A DNA stretch of 64,000 bases from a virus (Duplodnaviria > Heunggongvirae > Uroviricota > Caudoviricetes): IMG/VR virus record IMGVR_UViG_2563366947_000002; one strand, written 5' to 3'. This document shows positions 1,455-58,673 of the stretch, one piece after another; position 1 is the stretch's first letter; the number at the start of each line of letters is the position of its first letter. The position numbers and the translations under genes are program-made. Under the pieces are notes generated by a model. The model saw nothing but the letters and a program-made list of their open reading frames with translations, had not been told where the DNA came from and searched no databases.

Positions 1455-1456
1455 AA

Positions 1457-1903: not shown

Positions 1904-1997
1904 ACGAACATAGCCCCTTCATAAGCAATGAACCAAAGGAGAGTATGCTCAGTTTGTGATTTCCGTTGTTCTTCCCCCAAATGCGGGGGAAGAATTA

Positions 1998-2843
1998 TTA
2001 AACAGGTTGAAGGTGGTAATCCAAAGGCCACGCATCGAGTGGGGTTACATCAAGATGTAATTGCTTTTCTGCCGTTCGGTTCGGTATGGCGTTAAGAGAA
2101 ATATTGTCTACCTGGCAGGAGGTATCACTACGGGATAGCATATCAGCCATACTCTCAGTAACATAAACACCTTCAATTACCGAAACATCCGTAGACAAGC
2201 AATTTAGTATTTCTGCCACTTCAGGGAATACAGCACTAAGCCGAAACGAGACGCCATCAAAAACAATATGCAATGGCAACAAAGGGGCTATTACTGTTTC
2301 GAAGTCAGATAACAATTTCTGCACAGCGGCTTCTTTATCCTGCTCTCCATATGAGCGATATAGCTTGTTCTGATCAACAACGACCAGCCCCCTTGATGTC
2401 AGGAAGAGCTCACCGAATTGAGCCTGTGCCGTAGGTATTTCTATTTCGGTCGCAAAATATGAACCATAGGGGTGTTTTTCTATATTTACAGGTGCATATA
2501 GCGGTTCCCAACTAACAGGAATACAACCGAATTCACGCCAGAATGTCTGCTCAATAGGCAAGATAGTGCCTTTAAAGTGCACTTCATCTAAACGTTGCGC
2601 CAGCAGCATTGGCCTACGGGCCTTATCTTTTTCAGTGATAACGAAAAAACGCCCGTATTCAGCAATGCGGGCATCCATATCCTCACTGTCCATAGTGAAG
2701 AAGGATTTTCTGTTACTTATTCTTGTTAATATTGGTTCTACTGCCTCATTCCAGACATCTTGCAAAGCGTCTATAAAGGCACTCCAGAGATGGGAATCCT
2801 GTTTTACTTTAGTTAATCGTTCCTTAAGCCAATTATCTTTCAT
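1998..2843 (-). CDS. baseplate-associated protein (positional analog of P1 gp16)
   Basis: 281-aa ORF inside the baseplate/tail-fiber operon; no motif recognised. Confidence 0.4.
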   Translation of the reverse strand: MKDNWLKERLTKVKQDSHLWSAFIDALQDVWNEAVEPILTRISNRKSFFTMDSEDMDARIAEYGRFFVITEKDKARRPMLLAQRLDEVHFKGTILPIEQTFWREFGCIPVSWEPLYAPVNIEKHPYGSYFATEIEIPTAQAQFGELFLTSRGLVVVDQNKLYRSYGEQDKEAAVQKLLSDFETVIAPLLPLHIVFDGVSFRLSAVFPEVAEILNCLSTDVSVIEGVYVTESMADMLSRSDTSCQVDNISLNAIPNRTAEKQLHLDVTPLDAWPLDYHLQPV

Positions 2844-2853
2844 GCTAACCTCA

Positions 2854-4284
2854 TTACGGGTAAGAAATGTTGAACGTTGAAGATTTCACGTCAAGATAAA
2901 TGAAGTCATTAAAGTAAACAGCATCTTTCATATTTTGTATTGTTATGTCGTAAGACAGAAACATATCCAGAGACTCTATTACTCGCCAAATATCTTTAAC
3001 TTTTACCTGTGCATAACATTGCTGGGAATCATCATCACTCTGTAGTAATAAACTGAATGATGACGAATCACGACCAAAATTATCTTCCAACGCTGCTTTA
3101 ATAGCATTTTGAGCATCGTCTATCAGAACATTTTTACGTGCAATACCTATAAAATTTATAGTAAATGGCTGTTCATTTGTATCTACATACTCGAACCGCT
3201 TGTTTAACTCATTTGGAACATTCTCTAGAGCTTTCAGTATTTCTGATTTTAGCTGAGCCTGGCTTACACCCGGCTTATGTCCGCAAAAGAAAATTTTGTT
3301 GATGTTTCGAACGTCAAACCCAGTTATTTTCTCTTGTAACGCTTCGCCCCAAACGTTCAACCATGAAGTTCCATGAACAACATTCTGAATGAATTGGCGA
3401 TAATCACCGCCCCATACCACTTGTTCATCGTATGCAACATAATACTGAGCACGATTTCGAGTTTCTTCTGTAGTTTCCATACCACTACCACCGGTAATGA
3501 TCGAATCAGTTTTAAACTCTAGTGACTCCACATATTGAGCGATATTTCCAGCCGGTTCTAACTTTTGTCCTTCAGCCAAAGTATAGTCGCCAAGGCTAGC
3601 CATAACATCGATTCGAACCTGACAGCCTGCTGGAGGCATCATACCCATAGAACCATCACCAAACTTGACTCCAAGTTGTTCTGTAGGTTTATATGCCAAT
3701 GAATAGTGCTTACTCTTGTCTCTGGACATTCTAAATAATGGGTTATATGTCCATTTTTCTTCTACGCCATCTGTAATAACATAAACATCCAGGCTAGAGA
3801 CTTCTTTTGTTAACTCTCTGGAAAGCAACAATGTCAGAAATAAAGTTTCCTTCTCAATATCAAATGTAACGCTAACAGCTTCATGCTGTTTAGTTTCTAC
3901 GCCAGAAACAGTTCCTCCAGCAGGAATTACAACACTGTTAATAATTGCCAAAGGTGTTTGGTCATTGGCAAGCAATTCAGCCCCGGCTGGTAACGTAATA
4001 TCCCGATCAGTTTTATTGGTTATAGACGTTGTTCCGTATGAAGCACTAACAAATCGCCCTACGTAGCTACGGTCTTCAGCAACCGCTAAAATACTTGAGC
4101 GGCGCGTAGCCGTTGAAATAAGTCCCTCAGTGAGGCCGCGGCTTGCAAATGTACGGGCAATATAAATAAGCTGTGATCCGAATATAGCGTGCATCTGCAC
4201 AAACTGACTATTTACAAATCGTGACCACCATGTGTTTTCATTTAACTTGGCATTAAATTTGTCCAGTAATTCTGTAATCGTCAC
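2854..4284 (-). CDS. baseplate protein (BplA/gpJ-like)
   Basis: 476-aa ORF overlapping the upstream gene by 4 nt; position between gp25-like and tail-fiber genes. Confidence 0.45.
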   Translation of the reverse strand: MTITELLDKFNAKLNENTWWSRFVNSQFVQMHAIFGSQLIYIARTFASRGLTEGLISTATRRSSILAVAEDRSYVGRFVSASYGTTSITNKTDRDITLPAGAELLANDQTPLAIINSVVIPAGGTVSGVETKQHEAVSVTFDIEKETLFLTLLLSRELTKEVSSLDVYVITDGVEEKWTYNPLFRMSRDKSKHYSLAYKPTEQLGVKFGDGSMGMMPPAGCQVRIDVMASLGDYTLAEGQKLEPAGNIAQYVESLEFKTDSIITGGSGMETTEETRNRAQYYVAYDEQVVWGGDYRQFIQNVVHGTSWLNVWGEALQEKITGFDVRNINKIFFCGHKPGVSQAQLKSEILKALENVPNELNKRFEYVDTNEQPFTINFIGIARKNVLIDDAQNAIKAALEDNFGRDSSSFSLLLQSDDDSQQCYAQVKVKDIWRVIESLDMFLSYDITIQNMKDAVYFNDFIYLDVKSSTFNISYP

Positions 4285-4655
4285 GCGCCCACCCCACTTG
4301 ATTTCTGCATAACAATATCCATGCTCCCACCTTTCGCATAAAAACTAATTAATAAAGAATCTTCAGAAATTGATGTGCAACGAATCCCCTGCACATCCAA
4401 ACCTGGCAAGTCTTGTCGTAGTTTTTTCATCATTCTCCCTTCAATAGCCACTTCAACTATGTGCGAAGTTTCAGAGCCGAATGGTTCATGCTTAAATTCT
4501 TCCATTGGATTCCCCCAAGAGGGTAAACCATAAACACTCCCTTCAGGGGTTCGTAGCCACTCGTCAAGTCGGGCCATCCATGCTGCGGAACTTCCTTCTG
4601 CAATAATGACACCGCTCTCATTCGTTTGAAGTCTTGCGTCTATTTCATAAAGCAT
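4281..4655 (-). CDS. baseplate wedge protein, gp25/GpW-like
   Basis: 124-aa protein of the size and context of gp25-like baseplate lysozyme-fold proteins, directly downstream of the large tail protein. Confidence 0.45.
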   Translation of the reverse strand: MLYEIDARLQTNESGVIIAEGSSAAWMARLDEWLRTPEGSVYGLPSWGNPMEEFKHEPFGSETSHIVEVAIEGRMMKKLRQDLPGLDVQGIRCTSISEDSLLISFYAKGGSMDIVMQKSSGVGA

Positions 4656-4660
4656 CTTTA

Positions 4661-7600
4661 TTAATCCTCAAGCAGAGCATCCAGCGACGGGTCATTAATA
4701 GTTGTGCTAGCACGTGGTCGCGGTTGCGGCTGCGATGTTTTGACAACCTTATCCGGATCGCCTTTTGTATTGTTCTTGTTCACATTCAGAAGATCGTTCA
4801 GGATAGAGCAGATGTTATCCAGCGCCTTCAACATAGCAGGATCGTTATTTATAGTGTCAGTAGTTAATGGTTGTCTTATTCCGCTTCGTGCGAGATCTGT
4901 TACAGTAGGAAGCTGTGGTGGCATAGCAAGAAAAGGTTCTTGCACGGCTGACGCAGAGCCAAATATGGCATTATTGGCTTCGTTTGATATACCTCTAATG
5001 CTATCTGCGGTTTGTTGAATACCATTATTCAGCCAACTACCGGCGCTCCTGGTAAGCGGGCTAATAGCCCTAGCAATTGTTGAGTTCTGCCCAGTAGCCT
5101 GATAAACCAAATCATTAACAATGCCAGTGCCATCTACCCCACCAATAAGTCGTGAAACGTTATCGCCAATTGCAGGTAACACAGCAGAGCTAATACGTTT
5201 CAGACCTGTTAATGACGAGTCAAACAAAGAGCCAAGCACCCCCTTATCTTCACCATCAATTACCTTGTATCCATTGTCATAAACTGGAATCCCCCTTGAG
5301 TTTACAGGGATTTTTTCACTCTCACTTGCCGAAGAAACACCGGAAAGAAGATCCACTGAAGGCATATCGCGTTCAGCTTTTGGTCTTTTTTGTAAAGCGT
5401 CTCTTATATCAGTTACCTGGCTTGCTTTTTGAAATCCAAAAGATTTACCGGTTAAGCTGGATATCTTTTCAGTAAGAGCCTGATCCATTCCTTTCGCTTT
5501 TTCGGAAAGCGAAGATATAGAACCAAACGAAGTCGCCGACGCAAAATCCTTAATCAGGCCAAGGCTTGTACCAGCAAGGCTGGTAGCCGCACCTCCAAAT
5601 AAATTACCTACCCCGCTGTCATTTATAGCGATTAATCTCTCAAGCAGACTTGATGGAGAGCCAGTATTAACATCAACGTTCTCTGGATTAATCGGTTGCG
5701 ATTGATTGCCTGTTTTTTGTGGCTTTTTGACTGCCTGGGCATGTTGTGCAACCTCAATTGGCTGTTGTGTTGCTGTCGGAACGGCATTCAAAACTGGTTG
5801 AGCTGGAGATTTTCCATTAACATATTTTATCTTGCGACCAACACTATATTGCGAATCGCGGGCAATTAGCTGACCACCATTTTCTTTCTGAATTTTATTA
5901 ATCCGCGCCAATGTTTCGTCAGAGAATTGTCCCTCCCATCGACCAGTATTTGTGTTAAATGCCCCAAGAGCATTCTTTATGAACTCATTGTTAACCGCCG
6001 GGTTTCCACCTTCTTTCGTCGCTATTGCACGAACTAATTGCGTCATAACCTCTGGGTTGCTGACGTCTATTTTTTCATTAGGCGAGACGCCAAGATATTT
6101 GCTGACGTTATCAATATATTGATTAGTATTATTCTCCTTTGGGGGTGCCCATTTGGAAATAATACTGGATACCGTCTGTAGCTTCTGATACCCAGCAGCG
6201 GCGCTGGTGCCGTTGTAATAGCTTGACACCTGGTTTGCCAGCGCCCTGATCCCTTCTTCAGGCGTGTTAAATCGCGCAAAACGTTGTTCACCTTTTGCAT
6301 TTGGCGCTTCCAGCGTCGCCCCTTCCTGATTAGCGAAAACAAGGTTGCCGAGATTATTATTCCGGTAATTGCGGTTTTTAGCGTTGCTGCCGCCAATATT
6401 CAGATCCGCTGCAATGGTGTTGCTGGTAGGGGCATTAAATTCAGCCGGGGAAGTATACCCGTGCTCACCAACACCATCTTCACCATCACGCCCGCCTTGT
6501 AGTTGTCGGCCCAGGTCATTAATTGCGGCTACCGTTTGCTTGGTGCCATCCTCAACGGCTTTCTTAACCTGCGCAGTGCCTTCGCTGCTTGATGAGAACG
6601 ATTCTTTTAGGCTGCTGAATACGGTTTTTGTCGTGTCTATAGAACTATTTATGTCACGAGCAATATCTCCGGTGTCAAAATTCTGAAGTTTTTCACCTGC
6701 CCTTTCGAAGCCTAACGCAGAAATCCCTTTGCCTATCAGGTTGGTTGCACCCGACACTAAGCCGCCCATATCAAGCACATTAGCTGTTGCATAAGCGGTT
6801 TTTTGCTGTGTGGATACAGCATTATCATCACTTAAGCCAAAGGCTGCCTTTTGCGCCTCTGCATCAGTGTAACCGTCTATAGCATCGTATCCTGCCATAG
6901 CGATATTTCCGATAATTGGGATTCCTCTGACGCCAGCCCTTACGGCTGCACCACCGGCAGCTTTTAATGCAATTTTACCTGCCTCTTTTTTTGCGAGGTT
7001 CTCCCCTGTTGCGATAGCTACTTTCTCAGTAGTTGCTTCAGTTGCAGCTTTGGCTATACCGGTACTGGCCGTTTTTCTGGCCCCTTTATCTGCAACTTTC
7101 TCCGTCGTTTTTGAGGCGTCACTGATAGCCTCTTTTCCGGCGTTTCGGGGTTGGCGGTTTTCATTTTTAGCGGAATCATTTTTGCTATTTTGTTGTTTTT
7201 TCTCAACTTTATCTTTTGGTATTGATGTATCGCCTTTTTCCGTTGCAGTTGTTTTAATCTTGTTCTTTTTTGCTTCAGGGCTTTTATCAACTCTTCTATC
7301 CCTTTTAGACTTGTTTTTGTTTCGATTTGTTTTATTCCGATTACGATTTGAAGTAATGCGATCTCTGTTTCGACTAAAAAGATCGCTTAACTTAATCCCA
7401 TTACCTTTTGTTTTCATGGATTTGCGGAGTTTTACTATTTCATCTGAAACATTCTCCAGCTCATCTATGATTCGAGCATCATTGGATTGAAGAACTTTGG
7501 TTTGTTCTTCAACTACTCGTACTGACTTTGCTTCAATCGCGTTGTTAAATGCTGCTGAGGAAACTGAATTTTTTTCATTTCTTGGCGCAGGGTAAGTGAT

Positions 7601-8479
7601 CGCTGGCGATTTCGCTTCGTGATCTGGTGGATTATCTACCCACTCCTTAAGAGATTTTGTTTTCCCTGTAATCTCTTTTGTTATGTCATACATGCCGCGA
7701 GCTGCCATCCATAACGGGCCACCAGCACCGACACCAGCAGCATTTGTTATGGCTTCTTCACCTGCAGACTGATGGCCATCCATCCCCATAATGGAACCTA
7801 GTTTTCGGAGGAAGCCTGCTTGTAATTCTGCGTCGGCTTTACGTGCGTTCTGCAATTCTTTTTTTCTGGCTACATCCTCATTGCTTTTTTGGGATACAAA
7901 ACGTCCATTACTATCCCGCAGCGGGCCTTTTAGACTTTGGGGGGATTGTGGTTCAAGAGGGGCTGAATTAGCCGCTACCGGTATAAAACCGTCCGATTTT
8001 CGGATGGTCTGACGTGATTGCACGGAGCGAACACTTTCTGGTGTGTTCGTTGCAACGATAGCGCGGTCCACGGTTTGGTTTATCGGTGCCCTTTCCTTTT
8101 TAGCAGGGAGACGTTTTTTATATGGGTTAGTTTGGGCATCTCTAACGCTATCAGATGTACTTTGCTCGTAGTCTTTACGCCTGCGTGATAGTCTGTTGCT
8201 AACTCTGCCTTGCCTTTCGTCCTGTTGAGTTATGGTGCTTGCCCCAGAAAGAATGGCGTCTTTTACCTCAGCAAGAGCTTTAAGTTCGTTTGTGCTCGCT
8301 TCCTGAATAGCGTCAATTATTGCGATACGGTCTTTATTCTCTTTCAAAATAACCTCTCTTTTACCAGCGCGATCAACGTTTCCCAGCTTGAGCTTTGTAT
8401 TTTTCTTCCAGGGCTTTTGACATATGGAGTGCTCGCCATTGCGGTAATTGTTCAACGTCGCTAACGGGCTGATATCCAT
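4661..8479 (-). CDS. large tail injection / tape-measure-like protein (P1 Sit-like)
   Basis: 1272-aa ORF with a Lys/Asn/Arg-rich low-complexity segment and Gly-rich stretches; position upstream of baseplate genes as in P1 sit. Confidence 0.55.
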   Translation of the reverse strand: MDISPLATLNNYRNGEHSICQKPWKKNTKLKLGNVDRAGKREVILKENKDRIAIIDAIQEASTNELKALAEVKDAILSGASTITQQDERQGRVSNRLSRRRKDYEQSTSDSVRDAQTNPYKKRLPAKKERAPINQTVDRAIVATNTPESVRSVQSRQTIRKSDGFIPVAANSAPLEPQSPQSLKGPLRDSNGRFVSQKSNEDVARKKELQNARKADAELQAGFLRKLGSIMGMDGHQSAGEEAITNAAGVGAGGPLWMAARGMYDITKEITGKTKSLKEWVDNPPDHEAKSPAITYPAPRNEKNSVSSAAFNNAIEAKSVRVVEEQTKVLQSNDARIIDELENVSDEIVKLRKSMKTKGNGIKLSDLFSRNRDRITSNRNRNKTNRNKNKSKRDRRVDKSPEAKKNKIKTTATEKGDTSIPKDKVEKKQQNSKNDSAKNENRQPRNAGKEAISDASKTTEKVADKGARKTASTGIAKAATEATTEKVAIATGENLAKKEAGKIALKAAGGAAVRAGVRGIPIIGNIAMAGYDAIDGYTDAEAQKAAFGLSDDNAVSTQQKTAYATANVLDMGGLVSGATNLIGKGISALGFERAGEKLQNFDTGDIARDINSSIDTTKTVFSSLKESFSSSSEGTAQVKKAVEDGTKQTVAAINDLGRQLQGGRDGEDGVGEHGYTSPAEFNAPTSNTIAADLNIGGSNAKNRNYRNNNLGNLVFANQEGATLEAPNAKGEQRFARFNTPEEGIRALANQVSSYYNGTSAAAGYQKLQTVSSIISKWAPPKENNTNQYIDNVSKYLGVSPNEKIDVSNPEVMTQLVRAIATKEGGNPAVNNEFIKNALGAFNTNTGRWEGQFSDETLARINKIQKENGGQLIARDSQYSVGRKIKYVNGKSPAQPVLNAVPTATQQPIEVAQHAQAVKKPQKTGNQSQPINPENVDVNTGSPSSLLERLIAINDSGVGNLFGGAATSLAGTSLGLIKDFASATSFGSISSLSEKAKGMDQALTEKISSLTGKSFGFQKASQVTDIRDALQKRPKAERDMPSVDLLSGVSSASESEKIPVNSRGIPVYDNGYKVIDGEDKGVLGSLFDSSLTGLKRISSAVLPAIGDNVSRLIGGVDGTGIVNDLVYQATGQNSTIARAISPLTRSAGSWLNNGIQQTADSIRGISNEANNAIFGSASAVQEPFLAMPPQLPTVTDLARSGIRQPLTTDTINNDPAMLKALDNICSILNDLLNVNKNNTKGDPDKVVKTSQPQPRPRASTTINDPSLDALLED

Positions 8480-17937: not shown

Positions 17938-18070
17938 GGTTAAGCCCTAAATTCGGGCGCGGCGTGAAGGTTCTTTTGACGGGCTAACAATACCTACTTT
18001 GTGATTTAGTCAATAGATTTAGTAAAATAAAATCTATTAACACTCATGTTGTTATGTGATTTAATTTTGG

Positions 18071-18085
18071 TTTTCTAACACAAAT
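18071..18085. promoter_or_regulatory. C1-type operator-like motif (TTTTCTAACACAAAT)
   Basis: Member of a nine-site motif family; lies in the divergent promoter region between the capsid gene and 18096. Confidence 0.4.
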
Positions 18086-27973: not shown

Positions 27974-28013
27974 ATTTGTGTTAGAAAATACATATTAATT
28001 ATCTAACACAAAT
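27974..28013. promoter_or_regulatory. pair of inverted C1-type operator-like motifs in the rdgC promoter region
   Basis: ATTTGTGTTAGAAAA (27974-27988) and TTATCTAACACAAAT (27999-28013). Confidence 0.4.
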
Positions 28014-40839: not shown

Positions 40840-41054
40840 CAGTGCACCTCCACGCAGTTCATCGGCAGATTCCAGTAATTGAGGATCTCCATCGCATCAA
40901 GAGTGAAGCGTGCGGCAAAAATGCAGGGTTCTTCAGGAAGGTATGAACGAGCTTCTGCTTCGGTAGCAGCCATTACGCAGATATACAGGTGTTTTTGGCA
41001 GGAATAGAAACGCCAGATAAATTCAGAATGAGTTGGGGTAGGGATAGTAGCCAT
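40839..41054 (-). CDS. small protein (positional analog of P1 icd)
   Basis: 71 aa, AGGAGG RBS, stop overlaps the Rha-like start. Confidence 0.35.
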   Translation of the reverse strand: MATIPTPTHSEFIWRFYSCQKHLYICVMAATEAEARSYLPEEPCIFAARFTLDAMEILNYWNLPMNCVEVH

Positions 41055-41237
41055 ATTGGCAGCCTCCTTTTGCTAATTTAAGGAGCTACCGCGTGAGGTT
41101 CCAATCTCAATGGCGGTAGCACTGACTGGGTTGGAACTACCGGCGCAAAAGGGAACCGGCCTGCCTTTCGGCAGCCCAGCCAGCACTACCATTGATCTCT
41201 GAGCTAAACGCTACGTATGGCTGTGCGATGGCATGAC

Positions 41238-41261
41238 ACAAAAAAAGACGCTTTCGGCGTC
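41238..41261 (-). terminator. rho-independent terminator (minus strand)
   Basis: AGACGCCGAAAGCGTCT hairpin followed by TTTTTTT on the minus strand. Confidence 0.55.
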
Positions 41262-41366
41262 TGTGTCGCCTTTTGCATTATCCGGGGTTCCAATCCCGGC
41301 ACCCGTTTTTCTAAGGTGCCGTAGAAATATACCCCACGATAATGCCAGGGCGCAACAGTCAGTATT

Positions 41367-41534
41367 TTATGCTTTGGCGGATTTTTTCCGGGCTTGCTTG
41401 CAGGCGTAGGCCATTGCTTTAGCTTTCACTTCATCCAGCTTCCCGGTGATCACTTCTTTTCCGAGAGTGACAAACCAGTCATAGCAACCGCCAGTAATGT
41501 TCTTGATTTGAAAGTTGAGGTAGCGAACAGTCAT
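41367..41534 (-). CDS. small basic protein, 55 aa (not in ORF track)
   Basis: ATG at 41532-41534 with GGGGG RBS; translation MTVRYLNFQIKNITGGCYDWFVTLGKEVITGKLDEVKAKAMAYACKQARKKSAKA. Confidence 0.3.
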   Translation of the reverse strand: MTVRYLNFQIKNITGGCYDWFVTLGKEVITGKLDEVKAKAMAYACKQARKKSAKA

Positions 41535-41854
41535 TTTGACACCCCCAGCGCGAGTAAAGAATGCAGATTATCGCGTGAGTGGTGGACGACGAGTGATGGG
41601 AAAAGACTGTAGTTGTTCATAGTGTAGTGACTCCTTGCTTTCGGAGCCGCCATCGACTGTTCCACGGTCTGGTGGCGGCGCAATAAAGGCTGGAACACCG
41701 TGAGTCAACGGGGGCTTTTCAGCCACCTATATTGCACCGCCATAGGTATGGCGGCGGCAATAATACGAAAAACTAAACAGTTTGTCTCAAAAAGTTGACC
41801 GGTGTGCCAATCGGTAGTGAATGTACATCGGGGAAATTCACAATTCAACTTAAA

Positions 41855-41868
41855 ATGTTAGAAAACTA
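41855..41868. promoter_or_regulatory. C1-type operator-like motif (ATGTTAGAAAACTA)
   Basis: Motif family member at the head of the minus-strand leader toward the icd-like/Rha-like genes. Confidence 0.4.
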
Positions 41869-42444
41869 ATTTATCATTTCAATCTCCATCTGATACAACG
41901 CCATTTCATCGGCATTGTGCCGTATGAAATCTGCTTTTCCGCCTATTTTTCCATCAGCATGAACAGGGACCAGCCAGGGATATTGTTCTCGGACCTCGGC
42001 TGGCGCTGCGTACTGGTGGTGCCATTTACACAAAGGGAGGACATATTTATGCGCGTTCTCTGCCGTTCTCCCGAAGATATGGTGCAGGGATACTACTGGG
42101 CTATGTTGCCCGTGAATATGGCAGGCAATGCAGGGGAGAGTACCGATAGCGGTCTGTATCCGGCGTTCATCGGCTGTGAGTGATCTGCCCTTCAGGCCGC
42201 GTGACGTGCGTGTTTTTTTGGACGGAGCGGATACAGCTTTCTCTTTTCTCCGCTGGTCATATTGCTTTGCTTTTTCAATTTTTTTTTGCCGATATTCAGG
42301 CGATGCGGCTTTTTCTCTCGCTCGCTGCTGCTGGCGTTGAGCTTGTTGAAGGCGCTTTGCCCTTTGTTCCTCTCGCCAGGCTGGGTCAGCCAATTTTTGC
42401 ATGGCTTTTTGTCTCTGTTTCTCCCAATAACTCTGTTTCTGCAT
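41866..42444 (-). CDS. ref: Ref-like HNH-family nuclease
   Basis: 192 aa; Lys/Arg/Gln-rich N-terminus and a Cys/His-rich C-terminal region (CIACH..HH, CKWHH) as in P1 Ref. Confidence 0.55.
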   Translation of the reverse strand: MQKQSYWEKQRQKAMQKLADPAWREEQRAKRLQQAQRQQQRAREKAASPEYRQKKIEKAKQYDQRRKEKAVSAPSKKTRTSRGLKGRSLTADERRIQTAIGTLPCIACHIHGQHSPVVSLHHIFGRTAENAHKYVLPLCKWHHQYAAPAEVREQYPWLVPVHADGKIGGKADFIRHNADEMALYQMEIEMIN

Positions 42445-42490
42445 GATGGCTGCCTCTTACTTATCAGCGATTTTTTTATGATTGATCAAT

Positions 42491-42528
42491 ATCGTTAGAT
42501 AATCAAAATTGATTTTCTAACACAAAAC
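42491..42528. promoter_or_regulatory. pair of C1-type operator-like motifs in the ref divergent promoter
   Basis: ATCGTTAGATAATC and TTTTCTAACACAAAA. Confidence 0.4.
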
Positions 42529-42716
42529 ATTAATATCTTCGCTGATAACTGTTTGGAGGACATGATGCTTATAGCTTTAAGTGCGATCCACCAGCCATCT
42601 GTGAACGAGATCGGTCTGTTCTATGTGCTGTTTTTCGGGGCGTTGGCGCTACTTGAACTTGGTATTGAGCTTTTTGCCGTGCTGATGTTTTGCGTCACGA
42701 TGCTGGGGAAATTTTG

Positions 42717-43340
42717 ATGGTGAAACGTGTTTTGAAAATTTACATCGCGGGGCCGATGACTGGTTATCCAGATTACAACCGTGCGGCGTTTGATGCGAAA
42801 GCGAGCGAGCTGATGGCTGAAGGGCATATCGTTCTGAATCCAGCTGTGTTACCTGGTGGCCTTTGTCAGAGTGAATACATGGATATTTGCCTGGCAATGA
42901 TGCGTTCTGCTGATGCGATCTATCTGCTTAAGGGATGGGATGTGTCCGCAGGAGCACGTGCAGAACACGCTCTGGCTGAAAAACTGGGGTTGACGGTAAT
43001 TTATGAAGCACCATCTGACACAGATTGCAGAATGGCAGCGCATCTTTACCGTGAACTGGTCGATGCGTTACGTGATGTTGCTATTGAATGTCACGGCACG
43101 GATCAGCTTCGCGCCCGCTTAAGCAATACCCTTTCCAGTTACCTGTCTTTAGCTGAAGGATACAACCTCCGGCAGCGGAGAATGGTCAAATTAATCACGC
43201 GTTTATCTCAATCCCTGGCAAATGCCGAACCAACTAATCCGCTACCTAATGACGCAATGAATTATCTGAAGTCATGCGGCGTTGTTTCTGAAGATGCAGT
43301 TCGTTTTGTGGAGTTTATGTCTCAGAGGATGTCGGCGTGA
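42717..43340 (+). CDS. DUF4406-like (nucleoside 2-deoxyribosyltransferase-like) domain protein
   Basis: IYIAGPMTGYPDYNRAAF N-terminus; GGGGAA RBS before the ATG at 42717. Confidence 0.45.
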   Translation: MVKRVLKIYIAGPMTGYPDYNRAAFDAKASELMAEGHIVLNPAVLPGGLCQSEYMDICLAMMRSADAIYLLKGWDVSAGARAEHALAEKLGLTVIYEAPSDTDCRMAAHLYRELVDALRDVAIECHGTDQLRARLSNTLSSYLSLAEGYNLRQRRMVKLITRLSQSLANAEPTNPLPNDAMNYLKSCGVVSEDAVRFVEFMSQRMSA

Positions 43341-43654
43341 GCTGGCGGGGGTGGGGAAGGGCAGGAATCATGATACTCCGCCAGTGCGCCGGAACTATGA
43401 CGGTCGAGAGTATTGGGAAGCTGATCGGTCGTACCGGTGATGCCGTCAGGACTAAAGCGCGAGAGCTTGGGATCAGCATGATTCTGAAAGGTGACTTTCA
43501 CCAGTCAGCCAAATACCGGCAGAGCGATATAGAGCTGGCGCGGCAGCTTCATCAGTGTGGCGTTCCCCGCCGTGAGATCGCAGAAAAACTCGAAATGCCC
43601 CTGGGCATGATTAATCAGTACGTTTATTTCGAAAGGAGAGTGTATGAAGTCTGA
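43337..43654 (+). CDS. hypothetical protein
   Basis: 105-aa ORF coupled to the previous gene. Confidence 0.4.
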
Positions 43655-44003
43655 AGGTTTAACGCCCGCACAACTGGCAGAGCGTAACGCTGAATTACCC
43701 AGGATTACCCAGGAAAAAGCCTTCCACATACTCGAACGATTAGAAACGCTCGCTACGGAGGAGGATATATCCCCGGAGAAACTGGTTGAGTTCAGCCGTG
43801 TGATATTGCGTCGCAAGAACGATATGGAGCGGCTGACATCTGGCGCTCCATCCTTATCAGTCAGTCCAGCGCTTTATTGCAGCTTCTGCAACAAATCCCA
43901 GCACACCGTTAAAAAGTTAATTGCTGGGGACGCCGTTTTCATCTGCGACGAGTGTGTGGATGCGTGCAACAACGTTATCCGGGAAGAGGACTTAAGAAAA
44001 TGA
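43644..44003 (+). CDS. small protein with a ClpX-type N-terminal zinc-binding domain at its C-terminus
   Basis: Residues about 75-119 ([39 protein letters not shown]) nearly copy the E. coli ClpX ZBD. Confidence 0.55.
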
Positions 44004-44079
44004 ATGACGAATTTGACCGCTTTGAATTTTAACGGGGCGCACCGTCGCCCCGCATGGGAGGGGGATACGATGAAAAAAG

Positions 44080-44370
44080 ATGAGGCAGAATCCAATGAAT
44101 ATCGACACGACAATAACGATCGATACGCTCCTAAATTCCGGTCTGGCACTTCTCGGTTGGTTTTACATCATGTTCAGTGCGGGGAAGTGGGCGGCCTCTG
44201 TTTTTCTAAAGCAGTGGGGAAAGCGCCGCAAACAGGAAAAACGCCAGAAAGCGTTGGAGGCGTTCTATGACGCATTTGAACTTAGCCGCATTGAACCAGG
44301 CACAACAGCCAGGATAGCGACAAAAGGCGACCTGATGATAGTGATGTTCAGACAGGAGAAAACCAAATGA
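44080..44370 (+). CDS. hypothetical membrane-associated protein
   Basis: 96-aa ORF with a hydrophobic segment. Confidence 0.35.
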   Translation: MRQNPMNIDTTITIDTLLNSGLALLGWFYIMFSAGKWAASVFLKQWGKRRKQEKRQKALEAFYDAFELSRIEPGTTARIATKGDLMIVMFRQEKTK

Positions 44371-44591
44371 CAGAACAGACGATGACAAATCGCGAACTTG
44401 TTGATGCCGCGATTGAACTTGCTGGCGATTTTTATTCCATGATGGGGTACACGCATCGCCCAGGCTTCAAATATTGGGAGTCTCCGCACCCGCAAGAGCA
44501 ACGGGTATTTCAAATGGCCTGTCGCGCTTTTGAAGTTATTCGCGGTTCTGATGTGATGGACGCGGTTGCTGATTTGGAGGATGAAGAGTGA
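44367..44591 (+). CDS. hypothetical protein
   Basis: 74-aa ORF with overlapping stop/start. Confidence 0.4.
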   Translation: MTEQTMTNRELVDAAIELAGDFYSMMGYTHRPGFKYWESPHPQEQRVFQMACRAFEVIRGSDVMDAVADLEDEE

Positions 44592-44899
44592 ACACAATTA
44601 AAGAAATGCCGGTAGAACGTGATGAATATGGCTGCTGGACACATCCGGAGTATGAAAAGTTTTGCGCAGGTCGTGAATATATATCCACTGAGGAATTTGA
44701 CGCCTGGATGAAGGAAAATAATCTTCAGTGGACTATTCGCAGTATGGATGAAGATGATTTTGATCTGGACGCAGCTGGTCCCGATATTGCCGTCTGGGAA
44801 CCGGAGCGACCAGAGGGTGAAGGCTGGTTTGTTGGCTCTATTCATGACACTGAAGATGGTCCAGTTTGTATCTGGCTGCGGGAGAAGGTTGCCGCATGA
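44588..44899 (+). CDS. hypothetical protein
   Basis: 103-aa ORF with overlapping stop/start. Confidence 0.4.
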
Positions 44900-45588
44900 T
44901 CCAGGCTCTGCATGAAGTGAATTTATATAGCCGTATTGATGGTTCAGGCTACAGAAACATATGGGTTGTTGGTGATTTGCACGGTTGCTACACCCTACTT
45001 ATGAATGAACTCCATCGTGTGGATTTTGACCCGGCGCAGGATTTACTGATATCGGTCGGCGACCTTATCGATCGCGGTACTGAAAATGTCGAATGTCTGG
45101 AACTATTGCAGATGCCCTGGTTCAGGGCAGTGATGGGGAACCATGAGCGGCTGATGATTGATGCGTTAAGTCCAGATGGCAACGTGAATAACTGGCTAAT
45201 GAATGGCGGACAATGGTTCTTCATGCTGGACACTGATCAGGAAATATTAGCCTGGGCGCTGGTGGAGCTGGTAAAGCGTCTGCCCTATATCATTGAGTTG
45301 AACACCGGGCATGAAACTATCGTTATAGCCCATGCCGACTATCCAGGTGGAGAGTACCAGTTCGGTAAGGATGTGTCGCTTTTTGATGTTGTCTGGTCGC
45401 GCAGTCGCGTCGGTGATTCGATAGATGGCATTGGTGGAGAAATCACAGGCGCAGATCGCTTTATCTTTGGGCACACACCGGTACGAAGACCAAAAGCATA
45501 CTGGAATCAGCACTACATAGACACGGGCGCGGTTTTTTGCGGAAATCTGACGCTAATGCAGGTGAAGGGAGGGCAGCTTAAAGTCTGA
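44896..45588 (+). CDS. Ser/Thr protein phosphatase (lambda-PPase / PrpA-like metallophosphoesterase)
   Basis: GDLHG, GDLIDRG and GNHE motifs; GGAGAAGG RBS before the ATG at 44896. Confidence 0.75.
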
Positions 45589-45610
45589 TCAAATCATTTA
45601 CGCACTCAAA

Positions 45611-45648
45611 ATATGTTAGAACATTGATTTTAGTTTTCTAACATATTA
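45611..45648. promoter_or_regulatory. pair of C1-type operator-like motifs
   Basis: ATATGTTAGAACATTG and TTTTCTAACATATTA upstream of the 45686 gene. Confidence 0.4.
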
Positions 45649-45685
45649 TTTTACCGCTCGGAACAAAACAGAGTCGGTATACATT

Positions 45686-46681
45686 ATGAGTGCAATAATC
45701 ACACCTCATTTCGTAAACGGAGCTGGTGTGGCTGTCTTTCCGGTAGACAAGCCCACCAGTAACTACATTGGCGCAGGTCGCCGTTTCATTATCTCCCCAC
45801 TTCCGCGCGAACAGGCTGAAAACACGCCAGATGGCGTAGTGGATCTGAATTATTCGCTGGTTGCCAACCAGTCTCTGAAACCGTTTTTTCAAAGCGAGCG
45901 CGTATTTAACGCGTTGGGCGGTGAAGATTCGCTTGTTCATTGGGTAAGTTCCAATATCCACGATTGCCAGGCGCACGATAAGCGCGATTGCAGCCACCAG
46001 CTAACCACTCATTTCTATAACGGCTCTGCCGTTCGCCTGTGCTGGAAGCATGATGCGGAATACATGATGAAGGGGTACAGCAAGCTGGACGACCAGTTAT
46101 CCCTGAATCGTGCCAACTGGGTTATGAACTGGGCTGCGAGCGAGTTAAAACTACCGCCAGAACGCGATCTGAGCATGGTTGAACTCACTTTTTGGGCCAT
46201 TCGCCGGAATCTGAAAGATGAGCTGCCAGATGAAGCCGGTCGCATTGCATTTTGTCAGCCAAAAAATGAAATCCCTACCGGTACGCTGAAAGAATCAGAT
46301 ATCACCTGGGAGCACAGTACCCGCGAGCTGGTGGACATAACCGCAGAGCAGATCGTCAACCTGTCTGTAGATGAGGATTCCGGCCTGCTTTATATGCGCC
46401 GACCAAAAGCGGTCCTCGGTAAAAGCCCGGCTTATCTCCGGTTTGTGGTTTCTCGTCCGTGTATCGGATGCGGTGGCAAAGTTAACCACCCGTTCATGTA
46501 CCGCGCCCGCTCGTTAAACGAACACGACCGCTGGGCTGTTCCTCTTTGCGATGACTGCGCCAGAAGCGCAGAAAACGATGTCCGGGCATGGGAAAAAGCA
46601 CATGGCATACGCCTTTACGTAGCCGCTAACCAGCTTTTTGACTTCGCCATCGAGCGCGGAGTGATCACTTTCAATAACTGA
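45686..46681 (+). CDS. hypothetical protein
   Basis: 331-aa ORF; C-terminal Cys cluster (CIGCGG ... CDDCARS). Confidence 0.45.
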   Translation: MSAIITPHFVNGAGVAVFPVDKPTSNYIGAGRRFIISPLPREQAENTPDGVVDLNYSLVANQSLKPFFQSERVFNALGGEDSLVHWVSSNIHDCQAHDKRDCSHQLTTHFYNGSAVRLCWKHDAEYMMKGYSKLDDQLSLNRANWVMNWAASELKLPPERDLSMVELTFWAIRRNLKDELPDEAGRIAFCQPKNEIPTGTLKESDITWEHSTRELVDITAEQIVNLSVDEDSGLLYMRRPKAVLGKSPAYLRFVVSRPCIGCGGKVNHPFMYRARSLNEHDRWAVPLCDDCARSAENDVRAWEKAHGIRLYVAANQLFDFAIERGVITFNN

Positions 46682-46685
46682 TGAG

Positions 46686-47387
46686 GTGGATCAAAAAATG
46701 AAAGAACGCGGGATGATTTTTAACGATGAGATGGTCAGGGCCATCCTCGAAGGAAGGAAGACGCAGACTCGCCGACCTGTAAAAAATGTCAGGGCCGATA
46801 ACTGCCTGGTTATCCGTAAACCGACAAAGAAACGCAATGGTGTCTATACCCACGTTATGGATGCACCTGAACATGGTTTATGCCCGTTCGGTAACGTTGG
46901 TGATCGCATATGGGTCCGTGAGGCGTGGGCGATATTAGGCAATGAGGATGGTTGCAGTGTGGACTGGAACGACAACCTTTGTCGTGGCGATGAGAAGAAC
47001 GCAGCAAGGATTTATCGGGCCAGTTGTGAGCAAAAGCCGGGTGATTACGGCTTGTGGTCGATACCCGATGATGCCGACTGGAAACCTCACACTGTGAATG
47101 AAAAATTTGATGGCGGGTGGTGTCCATCAATTCACATGCCGCGCTGGGCATCGCGCATTCTTCTGGAAATTACCAACGTGCGCGTTGAGCGGTTGAACGA
47201 TATCAGCGAATGCGATGCAAGGGCTGAGGGCGCACCAACAGAATCGACCCTCATTGGCGATAAGCATTACCCATGTTTCCGTAGCCTATGGAAATCAATT
47301 TATGGCGAAGATAGTTGGAACGCTAATCCTTGGGTGTGGGTAATCGAGTTTAAGCGTATTCAGGGGGCAACCAGTGAGCAAGATTGA
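46686..47387 (+). CDS. ASCH-domain-like protein
   Basis: N-terminal MVRAILEGRKTQTRR is a typical ASCH signature. Confidence 0.45.
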   Translation: MDQKMKERGMIFNDEMVRAILEGRKTQTRRPVKNVRADNCLVIRKPTKKRNGVYTHVMDAPEHGLCPFGNVGDRIWVREAWAILGNEDGCSVDWNDNLCRGDEKNAARIYRASCEQKPGDYGLWSIPDDADWKPHTVNEKFDGGWCPSIHMPRWASRILLEITNVRVERLNDISECDARAEGAPTESTLIGDKHYPCFRSLWKSIYGEDSWNANPWVWVIEFKRIQGATSEQD

Positions 47388-55857: not shown

Positions 55858-55889
55858 TAACTTTAAATAATGCCAATTATTTAAAGTTA
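55858..55889. other. rox-type recombination site: 14-bp inverted repeats TAACTTTAAATAAT / ATTATTTAAAGTTA around GCCA
   Basis: Perfect 32-bp palindrome with asymmetric 4-bp spacer, about 150 bp upstream of the recombinase start. Confidence 0.85.
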
Positions 55890-55988
55890 TAAAATGCCGA
55901 TTTTTTTTAATCCATCATAGATTGATGATGACCAGTAACACGTTGCCTTCATGGTCTTTAATTAGCGAAGTGTGGTTTCTACGGTTGG

Positions 55989-56087
55989 TTTTCTAAAATT
56001 GATGACAAAAAATCACAGTTCGATCCTTTACTCACTCTGTTATTCGACATAAATTTGTCATAGTAATTTTATGTTAGAAAACTAAAT
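55989..56087. promoter_or_regulatory. two C1-type operator-like motifs upstream of the 56100 gene
   Basis: TTTTCTAAAATTG (55989-56001) and ATGTTAGAAAACTA (56070-56083). Confidence 0.4.
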
Positions 56088-56099
56088 CGAGTAGGAATA

Positions 56100-57137
56100 A
56101 TGAGTAAGAAGTCGATCGAGAAAGAGTACAAACGGTTCCTGCAAACCGCTGAACGGTGGAAAGAGCTGGTGGTCGCAAACTCTGTTTTCCATGATACCAG
56201 TTATGCTGGCGAGGAATTCCGCCATGTTGCATTAACGCATGACCAAAACATATTAGAAGAAGCTGAAAAATGTCTTGCTGAATGGAAAGCCTTCGTTGAC
56301 ATGTGCCGCGATGCCGACGGCAAAGCGTCGAACATTGTTGAGTCTGTATATTCTCCGATCCCATTCATCATTGAGGACACCAATCAAAGCACGCATGTCG
56401 TTGTGCAAAGCGCTACAACAACACGTACATTTACACGTGAACAATTGCTAAAAAAATACGACAAAATCATAAAGAAAAGCCTGAAAAATAGGGTTTTTTC
56501 TCAAATCGTAGGTGCTCTTGAAGAAGAACAGCGCTTCTTTGAAGCTGAGCCTGAAGGCGAGATCTACCGGGCGCGTAAAGAGGCATATACAGATGTTGTG
56601 CTGACAACAAACATCGAAGGCAGCAATGCCCTTTCTCGCTTTAGAGTTGGCGCACATGGCGCATTGGTTTTCGCAAGACAACCGAAGACAACGATCCCCG
56701 TTGTCAATAATGTTGGTGAACGCCGGAGCATTACAATTTATTCTGGCGTCGAATCGGTACCTTGCAGCCTTCTCGGCGATTTTAACTTATATCGTGTTCG
56801 TGACCTGGAAAAACACCAGCCAAGCTACGTTGCGAAGTCGTACATCTTAAGGAACATCGATATTCGCAATGAAAGCCTTAAGCAGAAATCCGCTAAGATG
56901 CTGGAGGATGCCGATCCGGCTATTCGCCATATCATTGAGCGTAAGATACGTACATCACGTGAAGCAATGGCAAGGCTGGATAAAATGGATCTGGAATTGT
57001 TAGACGTAATGATGGCCTCTGGAGACGACCTGACCGGCATTAAACTGAATGAAGCTCGTAAAAAATACGGCAAAGCAATCGAAGAACGTTACGGATACAC
57101 ATTCCCCCAAACGCAGTACGCCGCGAAGCTCTGGTAA
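56100..57137 (+). CDS. hypothetical protein; possible immunity repressor by position (P1 c1/coi slot)
   Basis: 345-aa ORF divergent from the recombinase across rox, convergent with pacB, preceded by two operator-like motifs; no HTH recognised. Confidence 0.4.
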   Translation: MSKKSIEKEYKRFLQTAERWKELVVANSVFHDTSYAGEEFRHVALTHDQNILEEAEKCLAEWKAFVDMCRDADGKASNIVESVYSPIPFIIEDTNQSTHVVVQSATTTRTFTREQLLKKYDKIIKKSLKNRVFSQIVGALEEEQRFFEAEPEGEIYRARKEAYTDVVLTTNIEGSNALSRFRVGAHGALVFARQPKTTIPVVNNVGERRSITIYSGVESVPCSLLGDFNLYRVRDLEKHQPSYVAKSYILRNIDIRNESLKQKSAKMLEDADPAIRHIIERKIRTSREAMARLDKMDLELLDVMMASGDDLTGIKLNEARKKYGKAIEERYGYTFPQTQYAAKLW

Positions 57138-57164
57138 TCACAACCGGCCCCGCATCGCGGGGCT

Positions 57165-58673
57165 TTATATATCCAGATCCGGCATTTCGATATCCGCCAG
57201 AACCTGATCTCGGAAAGTTGCCATTTCGGCACCAATATCTTCATTAGCAGGCACATAGTCCACCAGCATAGTGAAGCAGTAGGTATCCCATCGGTCAGGC
57301 GATTTGATGTTTAGCTTTTGCCGCATGTGCTCTTTGCGCATCATCGCCATTTTCCCTTCTTCATTCAGTAAAAAGGGGATTTTTGACGCTTGCTCTGCCG
57401 TTTTAGGGTCACTGTCTATCCGCATACGCCCTGACTTTATGGCATCACGCGCCATAATATTTGCGTAGGCACGCTGATTAACAAATCGCTCCCTGTCTTT
57501 GTTCGCAAACATGGGTTTTCCCCACCGAATACGTACCGGGTTCGCACCACGACGCACCAACTGCGCACACGTATCAGAACCAAAACCATCAGCATCAACC
57601 GCGATTGTTATATTCGGGTATTTTTCCGGCGTACATTCGTTATATATGAAGTCAGCAAAGGCCAATGGGTCCATAGTGCCAGGCATCTCCATTACCTTAA
57701 AGTTAACAACGCGCCGCTTATCCCTGTGACCTGATACCTTGCAGATGTTGAGGACCGACTTATCTCGCCCATTACCAACGTCAGCCGTTGCCACCCATCC
57801 CCAGTTTTTCTCCAACAACACCTTGCGGCGAGCAGCGCGATCGCATTCATCACGACCAAGCAAATAGCCGTTAATTTCTCGTGGGAACTGACCAAGCACC
57901 TTGACCATGTACTCAATAGAATCGCGCCCGCCATATTCCAGAAGCTTCTGCTTGATGAATTGTGGTGTGACGAACGGTGATTCTTCCGAGTTAAGAACAA
58001 TTGCTGTCCAGATCCCTTTCGGGTTGTCTGGGGTTTTTGCTTGAGAATGGTGCGAATCGTAGAAATAACCACTTGGCCTTGTTGGCTGGGATAGCATCAA
58101 CATCCGGTTATCTTCTTCAGTAAGAGCACCGGTCATTACGCCGATCGCCTTATCAGATATACCAGATGCTTCATCCAGAATTAGAAGCAAATGTGCCGCG
58201 TGTTCCCCCGCCAGCGCTTCTTCGTTGCCGAGTCGATAACCTTTGCAGAGAACTTCCCAAATCCCCTTACGGGAGCGCTCATAAAACATGGTGTCAGAGA
58301 GGACAAAATAGGTCTGCAACCACCCATGACGCTTAACTGCATTCGCCCAATACTGTTTAACGTATTTGAATACGCCTGTTTTTACCTGGCCTATCTTGTT
58401 AGCAACAATGATGACACGGGCATCGGGGAACAGGATCATGAAAATCAACAGCAACATCGCGGTAAGGGACGACTTCCCCGTTCCGTGTCCGGACGTGACG
58501 GTCGTCCTACTCCCCGTTTCCTGCACGGACTGAATGATCTGCTGCTGCTGGTGGGAGGGGAACATCCCAAAAATATCGACAACAGCTTGGGTAAAGTTGT
58601 AGCGGTATTTGATTACCATATCGCGCCAGCGTGGATCGCTGGTGACGCATTTAATCTTGCGCCCTCCAGCCAT
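57165..58673 (-). CDS. pacB: terminase large subunit (PacB-like)
   Basis: Walker A TSGHGTGKSS and Walker B LLLILDEAS; 502 aa. Confidence 0.8.
   Translation of the reverse strand: MAGGRKIKCVTSDPRWRDMVIKYRYNFTQAVVDIFGMFPSHQQQQIIQSVQETGSRTTVTSGHGTGKSSLTAMLLLIFMILFPDARVIIVANKIGQVKTGVFKYVKQYWANAVKRHGWLQTYFVLSDTMFYERSRKGIWEVLCKGYRLGNEEALAGEHAAHLLLILDEASGISDKAIGVMTGALTEEDNRMLMLSQPTRPSGYFYDSHHSQAKTPDNPKGIWTAIVLNSEESPFVTPQFIKQKLLEYGGRDSIEYMVKVLGQFPREINGYLLGRDECDRAARRKVLLEKNWGWVATADVGNGRDKSVLNICKVSGHRDKRRVVNFKVMEMPGTMDPLAFADFIYNECTPEKYPNITIAVDADGFGSDTCAQLVRRGANPVRIRWGKPMFANKDRERFVNQRAYANIMARDAIKSGRMRIDSDPKTAEQASKIPFLLNEEGKMAMMRKEHMRQKLNIKSPDRWDTYCFTMLVDYVPANEDIGAEMATFRDQVLADIEMPDLDI

Follow-up and report, generated by a model that had tools for sequence, protein, structure and literature searches.

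A stretch of 64,000 nucleotides from a virus of the class Caudoviricetes (IMG/VR record IMGVR_UViG_2563366947_000002, hereafter the window) carries a small gene whose product, the ZBD protein, ends in a zinc-binding domain (ZBD) of the type found in the protein unfoldase ClpX. According to sequence comparison and structure modelling, the C-terminal third of this protein is a genuine ZBD of the ClpX type rather than a generic C4 ribbon. The function that we favour, tentatively and at somewhat less than even confidence, is that of a trans-acting ZBD mimic, which would compete for the adaptors or substrates that dock on the ZBD of the host enzyme. The domain family is known already, and the likeness of the proteins to ClpX has been recorded by automatic database annotation; the two-domain phage family to which the protein belongs and a wider set of phage stand-alone ZBDs are described here as well. 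The gene and its domain are located as follows:

43644..44003, + strand: open reading frame (ORF) of the ZBD protein, complete, with an ATG start and 119 amino acids plus stop (ORF list and sequence).
43872..43988, + strand: ClpX-type ZBD, residues 77-115 (PF06689, PDB sequence matches, fold superposition, 30/39 identity and position table).

In the Pfam scan of the ZBD protein, zf-C4_ClpX (PF06689) was matched over profile positions 2-39 of 39 (62.1 bits vs. a gathering cut-off of 27, E 4.6e-17), and no other family, including any other zinc-finger family, gave a match. Among PDB sequences, the best matches were 2ds5 and 1ovx, both structures of the ZBD of E. coli ClpX (E about 3e-17), and alignment with residues 13-51 of E. 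coli K-12 ClpX showed 30/39 identical positions (77%), in line with the match at most positions that had been proposed in a first-pass annotation of the window. The retention of all four zinc-ligand cysteines, also proposed there, was confirmed: C79, C82, C101 and C104 correspond to C14, C17, C36 and C39 of ClpX (mature numbering), with CxxC-18-CxxC spacing, and are invariant in the 30 distinct ZBDs of the family. In an AlphaFold2 (AF2) model built from an alignment of 20 family members, the predicted local distance difference test (pLDDT) score was about 90 at residues 77-118, and this predicted segment could be superposed on the solved structures 2ds5/2ds6/2ds8 with a root-mean-square deviation of 0.5 Å over 38 columns and a template modelling score, TM(target), of 0.85-0.92. 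The same beta-hairpin (KLIAG...V[FY]IC) and C-terminal helix as in the E. coli ClpX ZBD were present, and the next non-ClpX zinc fingers in the fold search (LIM, PHD, RING) were far weaker (E above 0.6). Based on the Pfam score, the PDB sequence matches, the superposition and the sequence identity, the domain was considered a bona fide ClpX ZBD.

The NCBIfam models of the ClpX unfoldase (TIGR00382 / NF003745) were matched at profile positions 5-48 alone, with 44-45 bits vs. cut-offs of 359-371. The protein ends 4 residues past the ZBD helix and is without an AAA+ module, and therefore cannot be an unfoldase. No match to an SspB-type adaptor family was found in Pfam or NCBIfam; the C-termini of the family (EEDLRK, QRESA or GTQGAGR) carry no SspB-like XB tail, and the LRRK motif sits inside a predicted helix (residues 44-65).

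In order to describe conservation along the domain, the 30 distinct family ZBDs were tabulated by position against 14 distinct genuine ClpX ZBDs, the latter recognised by the downstream PxEI...L[DN]xYVIGQ motif. Positions kept in the family were L12, C14, S15, F16 (invariant), C17, K19, V24, L27-I28-A29-G30, V33, F/Y34, I35, C36, D37, E38, C39, V40, C43, N44 and I47. As the ClpX-specific residues L12, F16, K19, KLIAG, V33, F/Y34-I35, V40, N44 and I47 are among them, the domain differs from the generic C4 zinc ribbon that the first-pass annotation had set against its own proposal. At the positions that correspond to the docking pocket of ClpX, F16 was invariant, I46 was V/I in 27/30 sequences, and L42 was V/A/L/I in 27/30 and D in the other 3, which belong to one clade.

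The ClpX ZBD is a constitutive dimer, as judged by crosslinking, and the ZBD alone binds (cross-links to) the adaptor RssB; moreover, when the E. coli ZBD is purified and supplied in trans at 5-20 µM, the RssB-dependent degradation of sigma-S by 0.6 µM ClpXP in vitro is inhibited (PMC7226468). Residues F16 and I46 form a hydrophobic side pocket used by TF, lambda-O, SspB and RssB (PMC7804408). Since the ClpX ZBD is a dimeric docking platform and the isolated domain inhibits in trans, a mimic is the simplest reading of the ZBD protein. With this in-vitro precedent, the decoy or hetero-dimerising inhibitor of host ClpXP suggested in the first-pass annotation is a reasonable, if hypothetical, proposal; the invariant F16, the early-operon contexts, the lack of a conserved partner gene and the recurrence of stand-alone ZBDs in unrelated phages also speak in its favour. 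The protein would be a small early phage protein, made up of a phage-specific helical hairpin and a flexibly linked, zinc-stabilised ZBD captured long ago from a proteobacterial clpX. The phage ZBD would fold, and presumably homodimerise, like the host domain, and would offer the same hydrophobic and beta-hairpin docking surface free in the cytoplasm, where it might compete with the ZBDs of the ClpX hexamer for the adaptors SspB, RssB and UmuD and for substrates of the lambda-O/MuA type. Adaptor- and ZBD-dependent proteolysis by ClpXP would be blunted or re-routed in lytic development, with pore-recognised (ssrA-type) degradation left intact, and labile phage or host proteins would be spared during its early phase. 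The conserved N-terminal domain (N-domain) may add specificity or avidity, through oligomerisation or a particular partner.

Several points weigh against a mimic of this kind. Competition by the ZBD on its own is weak in vitro, in the µM range (PMC7226468). Positions that are invariant or near-invariant in ClpX are altered in the family, namely P31 to D/E (27/30), D45 to R/S/N/E and E23 to A/T, which neighbour the pocket, as well as L42 to V/A/L/I (D in one clade) and I46 to V/I; in addition, S20 is changed to P in half of the family, K26 is partly L/Q, and S/T32 is changed to D/A/G. The docking surface thus appears to have been re-tuned, and the classical partners need not bind to it. The ratio of non-synonymous to synonymous substitution rates (dN/dS), computed pairwise with the Nei-Gojobori method for 23 distinct coding sequences, had a median of 0.61 in the ZBD vs. 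0.28 in the N-domain, figures that are no more than indicative, given the short region, the recombining sequences and the non-independent pairs. On these figures the ZBD is the faster-evolving part, and the opposite order would be expected if its surface acted on conserved host adaptors. Conserved as it is, and never seen apart from this ZBD, the N-domain may itself be the effector. Furthermore, the timing assumed for the operon, repressed in the lysogen and expressed early, is a prediction from motifs.

Overall, purifying selection acts on each of the two domains (dN/dS below 1); in some close pairs the ZBD value was above 1 (e.g. 8 non-synonymous vs. 1 synonymous changes). These figures are indicative of a domain whose fold and key pocket aromatic are preserved while the surrounding surface is being re-tuned. 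Judged by its sequence, the phage ZBD is a diverged, fast-evolving derivative of the ClpX ZBD, not a drop-in copy. The ZBD strand by the hairpin turn reportedly pairs with the SspB tail, as Park et al. are said to have described in 2007, and it may be speculated that the acidic change at the turn beside this strand (P31/S32 to D/E-D) could favour basic XB-like motifs (LRVVK, LKxh).

The comparison of the ZBD with E. coli clpX over 117 aligned bases showed 67% nucleotide identity, with third positions matching at 19/39 and the same codon used at 15/30 of the residues shared with E. coli ClpX; in blastn, the ZBD region reached clpX at E = 5 at best. The nucleotide identity, the near-random third positions and the blastn result ruled out a recent capture from the host, and the capture is thus ancient. 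The most divergent family members (Salmonella P2-like P0030, P0129, L059 and L061) were the most ClpX-like, which points to an enterobacterial or gamma-proteobacterial clpX ancestor. When phage ZBDs were compared with those of their hosts for signs of host tracking, differences of a mere 1-2 residues were found, in the expected direction but not decisive.

The window corresponds to a D6-like (P1-related) phage-plasmid: positions 41000-47000 are 96% identical to Escherichia phage D6, and positions 55874-64000 correspond to D6 coordinates 1-8127, carrying c1, pacAB and lpa. The region ahead of the ZBD, which the first-pass annotation had described as an unrelated N-terminus of 70 residues, is composed of three parts rather than one:

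43644..43703, + strand: chimeric leader, codons 1-20, of which the first 17 are the start of D6 orf91, an Ea22-like neighbour (blastn vs. D6).
43704..43841, + strand: family-specific N-domain of 46 amino acids, residues 21-66 (family alignments and AF2 secondary structure).
43842..43871, + strand: Ser/Pro-rich disordered linker of 10 amino acids, residues 67-76 (AF2 pLDDT below 50 at 69-73; variable in the alignment).

The gene order in D6 is DUF4406, orf90, orf91, orf92 (Ea22-like) and orf93, where orf93 encodes the canonical ZBD protein of 106 amino acids, beginning MTTSHSAITQEKAF. Window positions 43326-43693 matched orf90 and the start of orf91 in blastn, and positions 43704-44100 matched orf93 from nt 22. 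A deletion of ~1 kb has removed orf91-orf92 (L002 3959-5001), fusing 17 codons of orf91 in frame to codon 8 of orf93. On the evidence of this alignment, the 20-residue leader arose by chance, through recombination. The same chimeric start was found in clusters P0001-P0004, with 176 member sequences together, and is common in Salmonella and E. coli plasmids. As a side observation, a protein of 115 amino acids (P0032) has an Ea22-like coiled-coil N-terminus (…AAENAGLK) joined straight to the linker and ZBD.

In the AF2 model the N-domain is a helical hairpin (helices 23-39 and 44-65), with a further helix at 8-17 in the leader; the predicted template modelling score (pTM) of the whole protein was low (0.36), suggesting two independently mobile modules. 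Identity of residues 21-66 across the family ranged from 49 to 95%, and the charged residues E24, K25, R32, E34, E39, E40, R57 and D60 were invariant, as were L33 and L64. The N-domain was returned only beside the ZBD, both when 5.8 billion clusters were searched by word index and when 1.84 billion representatives were searched exhaustively with a hidden Markov model (HMM): the matches were N-domain plus ZBD proteins, frameshifted fragments of them, and one eukaryotic repeat protein (P0127), rejected as spurious. The family was slightly widened by divergent members from viral contigs (L059 and L050). Searches of Pfam (E up to 10), of PDB by profile, and of PDB and BFVD by Foldseek gave no significant match to the N-domain.

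These features of the N-domain bear on a second explanation, which we consider rather unlikely, in which the ZBD is a mere zinc-stabilised dimerisation scaffold and the helical N-domain is the effector, acting on a host or phage target unrelated to the ClpX docking partners. The N-domain is the more constrained of the two (dN/dS 0.28 vs. 0.61) and carries eight invariant charged residues of surface type, while invariance in the ZBD is mostly confined to the core and the zinc ligands, with ClpX-invariant surface positions drifting. A constitutive dimer, as in ClpX (PMC7226468), would suit a scaffold, and proteins in which a C-terminal ZBD follows coiled-coil helices are encoded by other phage ORFs too. 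What a scaffold leaves unexplained is the repeated choice of the ClpX ZBD by unrelated phages, including proteins of 56-65 amino acids that consist of the ZBD only, as well as the retention of F16 and, in most members, of hydrophobic character at 42 and 46; moreover, the N-domain never occurred without the ZBD among the 1.84e9 representatives.

A third explanation, which we regard as improbable, involves ClpX itself: the phage ZBD would hetero-dimerise with newly made ClpX subunits, and the N-domain on the ring would either cap and poison the enzyme or work like a built-in adaptor recruiting victims chosen by the phage. A mixed dimer is sterically conceivable at 77% identity to host ClpX in the core and helix, the conserved charged surface of the N-domain would suit cargo binding, and phages hijack Clp machines in other cases, e.g. 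SPO1 Gp53 with ClpCP. The dimers of the ClpX ZBD are nevertheless constitutive and stable, making exchange into pre-existing hexamers unlikely, and mixed dimers may be disfavoured by the changes that the C-terminal helix carries at L42, D45 and I46.

With regard to the gene itself, the ORF was found at 100% identity in two plasmids of Salmonella (pSL26_91 and CP123682), and its nt 61-360 were 98% identical to D6 orf93. At the protein level a full-length match to PHROG 6797 (function unknown) was obtained, with residues 16-118 on profile positions 3-105 of 107 (E 1.2e-55). The first 11 nt of the gene are shared with the end of the upstream ORF, stop included, and the gene is preceded by a ribosome-binding site:

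43633..43638, + strand: Shine-Dalgarno sequence AAGGAG, 5 nt before the ATG of the ZBD gene (read from the sequence).

Relatives are named "ClpX C4-type zinc finger protein" or "carboxylate--amine ligase" in annotations from the Prokaryotic Genome Annotation Pipeline (PGAP) and RefSeq. The latter name, present in many RefSeq/GenBank records (P0001-P0030, D6 gp034, P88 gp19), was rejected, as these proteins have no ligase domain and PF06689 alone. The gene table of the identical plasmid pSL26_91 has no coding sequence (CDS) at the position of the ZBD gene. No second copy or paralogue was found in the window, no PADLOC-DB defence-system model matched the ZBD protein at E 0.01 or better, and full-text literature searches returned no study of phage or stand-alone ZBD proteins.

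The absence of a CDS in pSL26_91, together with the chimeric 5' end left by the deletion in the window copy and the read-through or frameshifted versions at L042, L043 and P0130-P0132, could suggest a decaying gene fragment or an annotation artefact without function. This explanation is very improbable, given that the gene is intact in dozens of phage-plasmids and prophages (49-99% identity) with invariant zinc ligands, that dN/dS is below 1, that a good Shine-Dalgarno sequence and translational coupling are present, and that the chimeric form is itself widespread (P0001-P0004, 176 sequences). In the L042/L043 ORFs (282-293 amino acids), the frame exits the ZBD after ICDEC and runs into the next gene, with loss of the fourth cysteine and the helix.

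The ZBD gene comes fourth in a compact cluster of ORFs on the same strand, divergent from ref, in the order 54-aa ORF, DUF4406, helix-turn-helix (HTH)-like, ZBD and DUF4752, followed by two small ORFs, a phosphatase gene of the Ppp/NinI type and a pdcB-like gene. The features upstream of the ZBD gene, and related sites, were:

42690..43340, + strand: gene for a DUF4406 protein, upstream in the same operon (Pfam DUF4406; pSL26_91 and D6 annotation).
43337..43654, + strand: gene for a 105-aa HTH-like protein, D6 orf90 (PHROG 323; reading frames overlapping its neighbours).
42494..42521, no strand: 28-bp palindrome GTTAGATAATCAA-AA-TTGATTTTCTAAC in the divergent promoter region between ref (on the - strand) and the accessory operon, an inverted repeat that is 92% complementary.
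18067-18078, 27980-28007, 55985-55996 and 60507-60518: sites of the motif elsewhere in the window, 55985 being upstream of the c1 homologue and 60507 upstream of lpa.

The 105-aa ORF matched positions 145-248 of 319 in PHROG 323 ('transcriptional regulator, D5-like') without a Pfam hit. PGAP calls it a DNA-binding protein. Its translational coupling to the ZBD gene in the window is present only because of the deletion. The half-site TTAGAWAATCAA occurred 7 times in the window vs. 1.0 expected; collinearity with D6 served to identify the homologues of c1 and lpa. No match to the P1 C1 operator consensus ATTGCTCTAATAAATTT within 3 mismatches was found in the window. In P1, the C1 repressor controls c1, lpa and ref. 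The palindrome is a candidate operator of a D6-type C1 repressor, to judge from the placement of its copies.

That the gene follows an HTH-like gene, and adjoins a gene for an Ogr/Delta zinc-finger activator in one Salmonella P2-like prophage, could favour a fourth explanation, very unlikely in our estimation, in which the protein would be a zinc-finger regulator of the phage that binds nucleic acids or is associated with transcription, unconnected with proteolysis. Treble-clef folds are versatile, and PF06689 is reported as a fusion to some cyanobacterial sigma factors (PMC11119718). Against such a role, no DNA-binding family matched, the N-domain is acidic overall, and the neighbours differ between phages. 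Moreover, DNA binding is not known for the ClpX ZBD itself.

Copies of the ZBD gene were present in about 130-190 of 5,426 complete E. coli genomes, mostly on plasmids, and its contexts were early or accessory operons in three phage types. In the phage-plasmid PhiR41_1 it lies between Ea22/EaA-type accessory genes, while in P2-like phages (P88, PhiR44_2 and many prophages) it follows the replication gene A and a ParM/StbB pair and precedes the portal gene; in one Salmonella P2-like prophage it is located between A and ogr. No neighbour or partner gene was conserved across the D6-like, P2-like and other settings examined, which fits a conserved host target. Among the matches listed by the genome contig scan, most of them genuine clpX genes, the two that seemed longer (L096 and L127) turned out to be ordinary clpP-clpX loci and were discarded.

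Two further observations concern the neighbourhood of these copies. In PhiR41_1, the accessory cluster that holds the ZBD gene also contains, ~3.5 kb downstream of it, a umuD homologue (L012 7892-8281), which may be coincidence; in the host, UmuD docks on the ZBD as an adaptor and brings UmuD' to ClpXP. In P2-like prophages and phage P88 (L004-L008 and L011), genes for a ParM/StbA-like actin and a StbB-like partition protein lie between gene A and the ZBD gene, an unusual cargo for integrated P2-type phages.

A scan for stand-alone ZBDs covered IMG/VR and the phage collection, and the following groups and single proteins were recovered:

About 35 enterobacterial contigs: the full N-domain plus ZBD family.
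L060, L064, L068, L069, L071, L072, L074 and L080: coiled-coil helix plus C-terminal ZBD, 80-133 amino acids.
L062, L065, L073, L084, L089 and L093: ZBD-first proteins, 56-169 amino acids.
L014 2983-3180: gp081 of the Pseudomonas lambdoid phage PP9W2, 65 amino acids, in the nin region right after the replication genes.
L013 1522-1761: ORF of ~70 amino acids of the lytic Caulobacter phage Cr30, a ZBD with the alpha-proteobacterial LCM(D/E)I (M44) signature.
Bacillus phage G: gp258, a stand-alone ClpX-type ZBD.

Some of the proteins from other phages, of 56-65 amino acids, consist of the ZBD without any other domain. The HMM search did not find the helical N-domain in other stand-alone ZBD proteins; with no shared N-domain, these are probably independent captures. 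That unrelated phages each encode such a ZBD, with flanks that differ, suggests that a free ZBD has been selected for repeatedly. A broader interpretation, which we hold more doubtful than the mimic proposed for the enterobacterial protein, is that stand-alone ClpX-ZBD proteins could be widespread, repeatedly captured phage 'protease-domain mimics' that reprogram the substrate choice of ClpXP via adaptor or substrate docking elements or via hetero-dimers with ClpX; the enterobacterial family would then be a specialised lineage, and its fast-evolving ZBD surface would reflect an arms race.

In Cr30, the annotated start (a CDS of 41 amino acids) probably truncates the ZBD. The searches also returned bacterial and metagenomic proteins of 117-180 amino acids (P0033, P0034, P0035, P0040 and ~45 more) with an N-terminal ClpX-type ZBD and a non-ClpX tail. 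Some of them (e.g. P0035 and P0040) have a second Cys-rich (Cys4) module near the C-terminus, such proteins being about 125 amino acids long, and P0033 and P0034 have two tandem ZBDs.

Compared with the E. coli ClpX ZBD, the phage domain has the same fold, CxxC-18-CxxC site, beta-hairpin, C-terminal helix and F16, with 77% identity, but it is free of the AAA+ module, sits at the C-terminus of a protein of 107-121 amino acids, is altered at ClpX-invariant positions, and evolves much faster than a housekeeping ZBD. PP9W2 gp081, the Cr30 ORF, phage G gp258 and the IMG/VR ORFs likewise have a ClpX-type ZBD without AAA+, the phage examples lying in early or nin-like regions; they differ in their N- and C-terminal extensions, the helical N-domain being restricted to the present family. 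Phage modulators of host AAA+ proteases include T4 PinA and T7 Gp4.5 (vs. Lon), lambda CIII (vs. FtsH) and SPO1 Gp53 (with ClpCP). The ZBD protein resembles these in being a small early phage protein with no enzymatic domain and a presumed role in altering protease targets, yet it shares neither sequence nor fold kinship with them, and none of them copies a domain of the protease. Should the phage ZBD bind RssB in the way of the isolated ClpX ZBD, its point of action would be that of the anti-adaptors IraD, IraM and IraP, which prevent RssB from delivering sigma-S to ClpXP: it would occupy the ClpX-docking surface of the adaptor, which in RssB has been proposed to overlap the IraD site (PMC7226468). 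Unlike these anti-adaptors, to which it is unrelated in sequence, it would mimic the docking domain of the protease rather than use an anti-adaptor fold.

The fate of many proteins that matter to phages is set by ClpXP, among them lambda-O-type initiators, MuA, the Phd antitoxin, UmuD', RpoS (via RssB) and FtsZ. Phage inhibitors are known for Lon and FtsH, while no ClpX-directed phage inhibitor, and none built from a ZBD, was found in the searchable literature. If the proposed mimicry is true, the ZBD protein would be a clean natural case of domain mimicry, in which a protein is built from the docking domain of the protease itself, and would provide a ready-made, genetically encoded tool for shutting down proteolysis by ClpXP in its adaptor- and ZBD-dependent branch alone. 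The means by which P1/D6- and P2-like phages keep labile early proteins intact, or weaken abortive infection triggered by antitoxin degradation, could then be explained as well.

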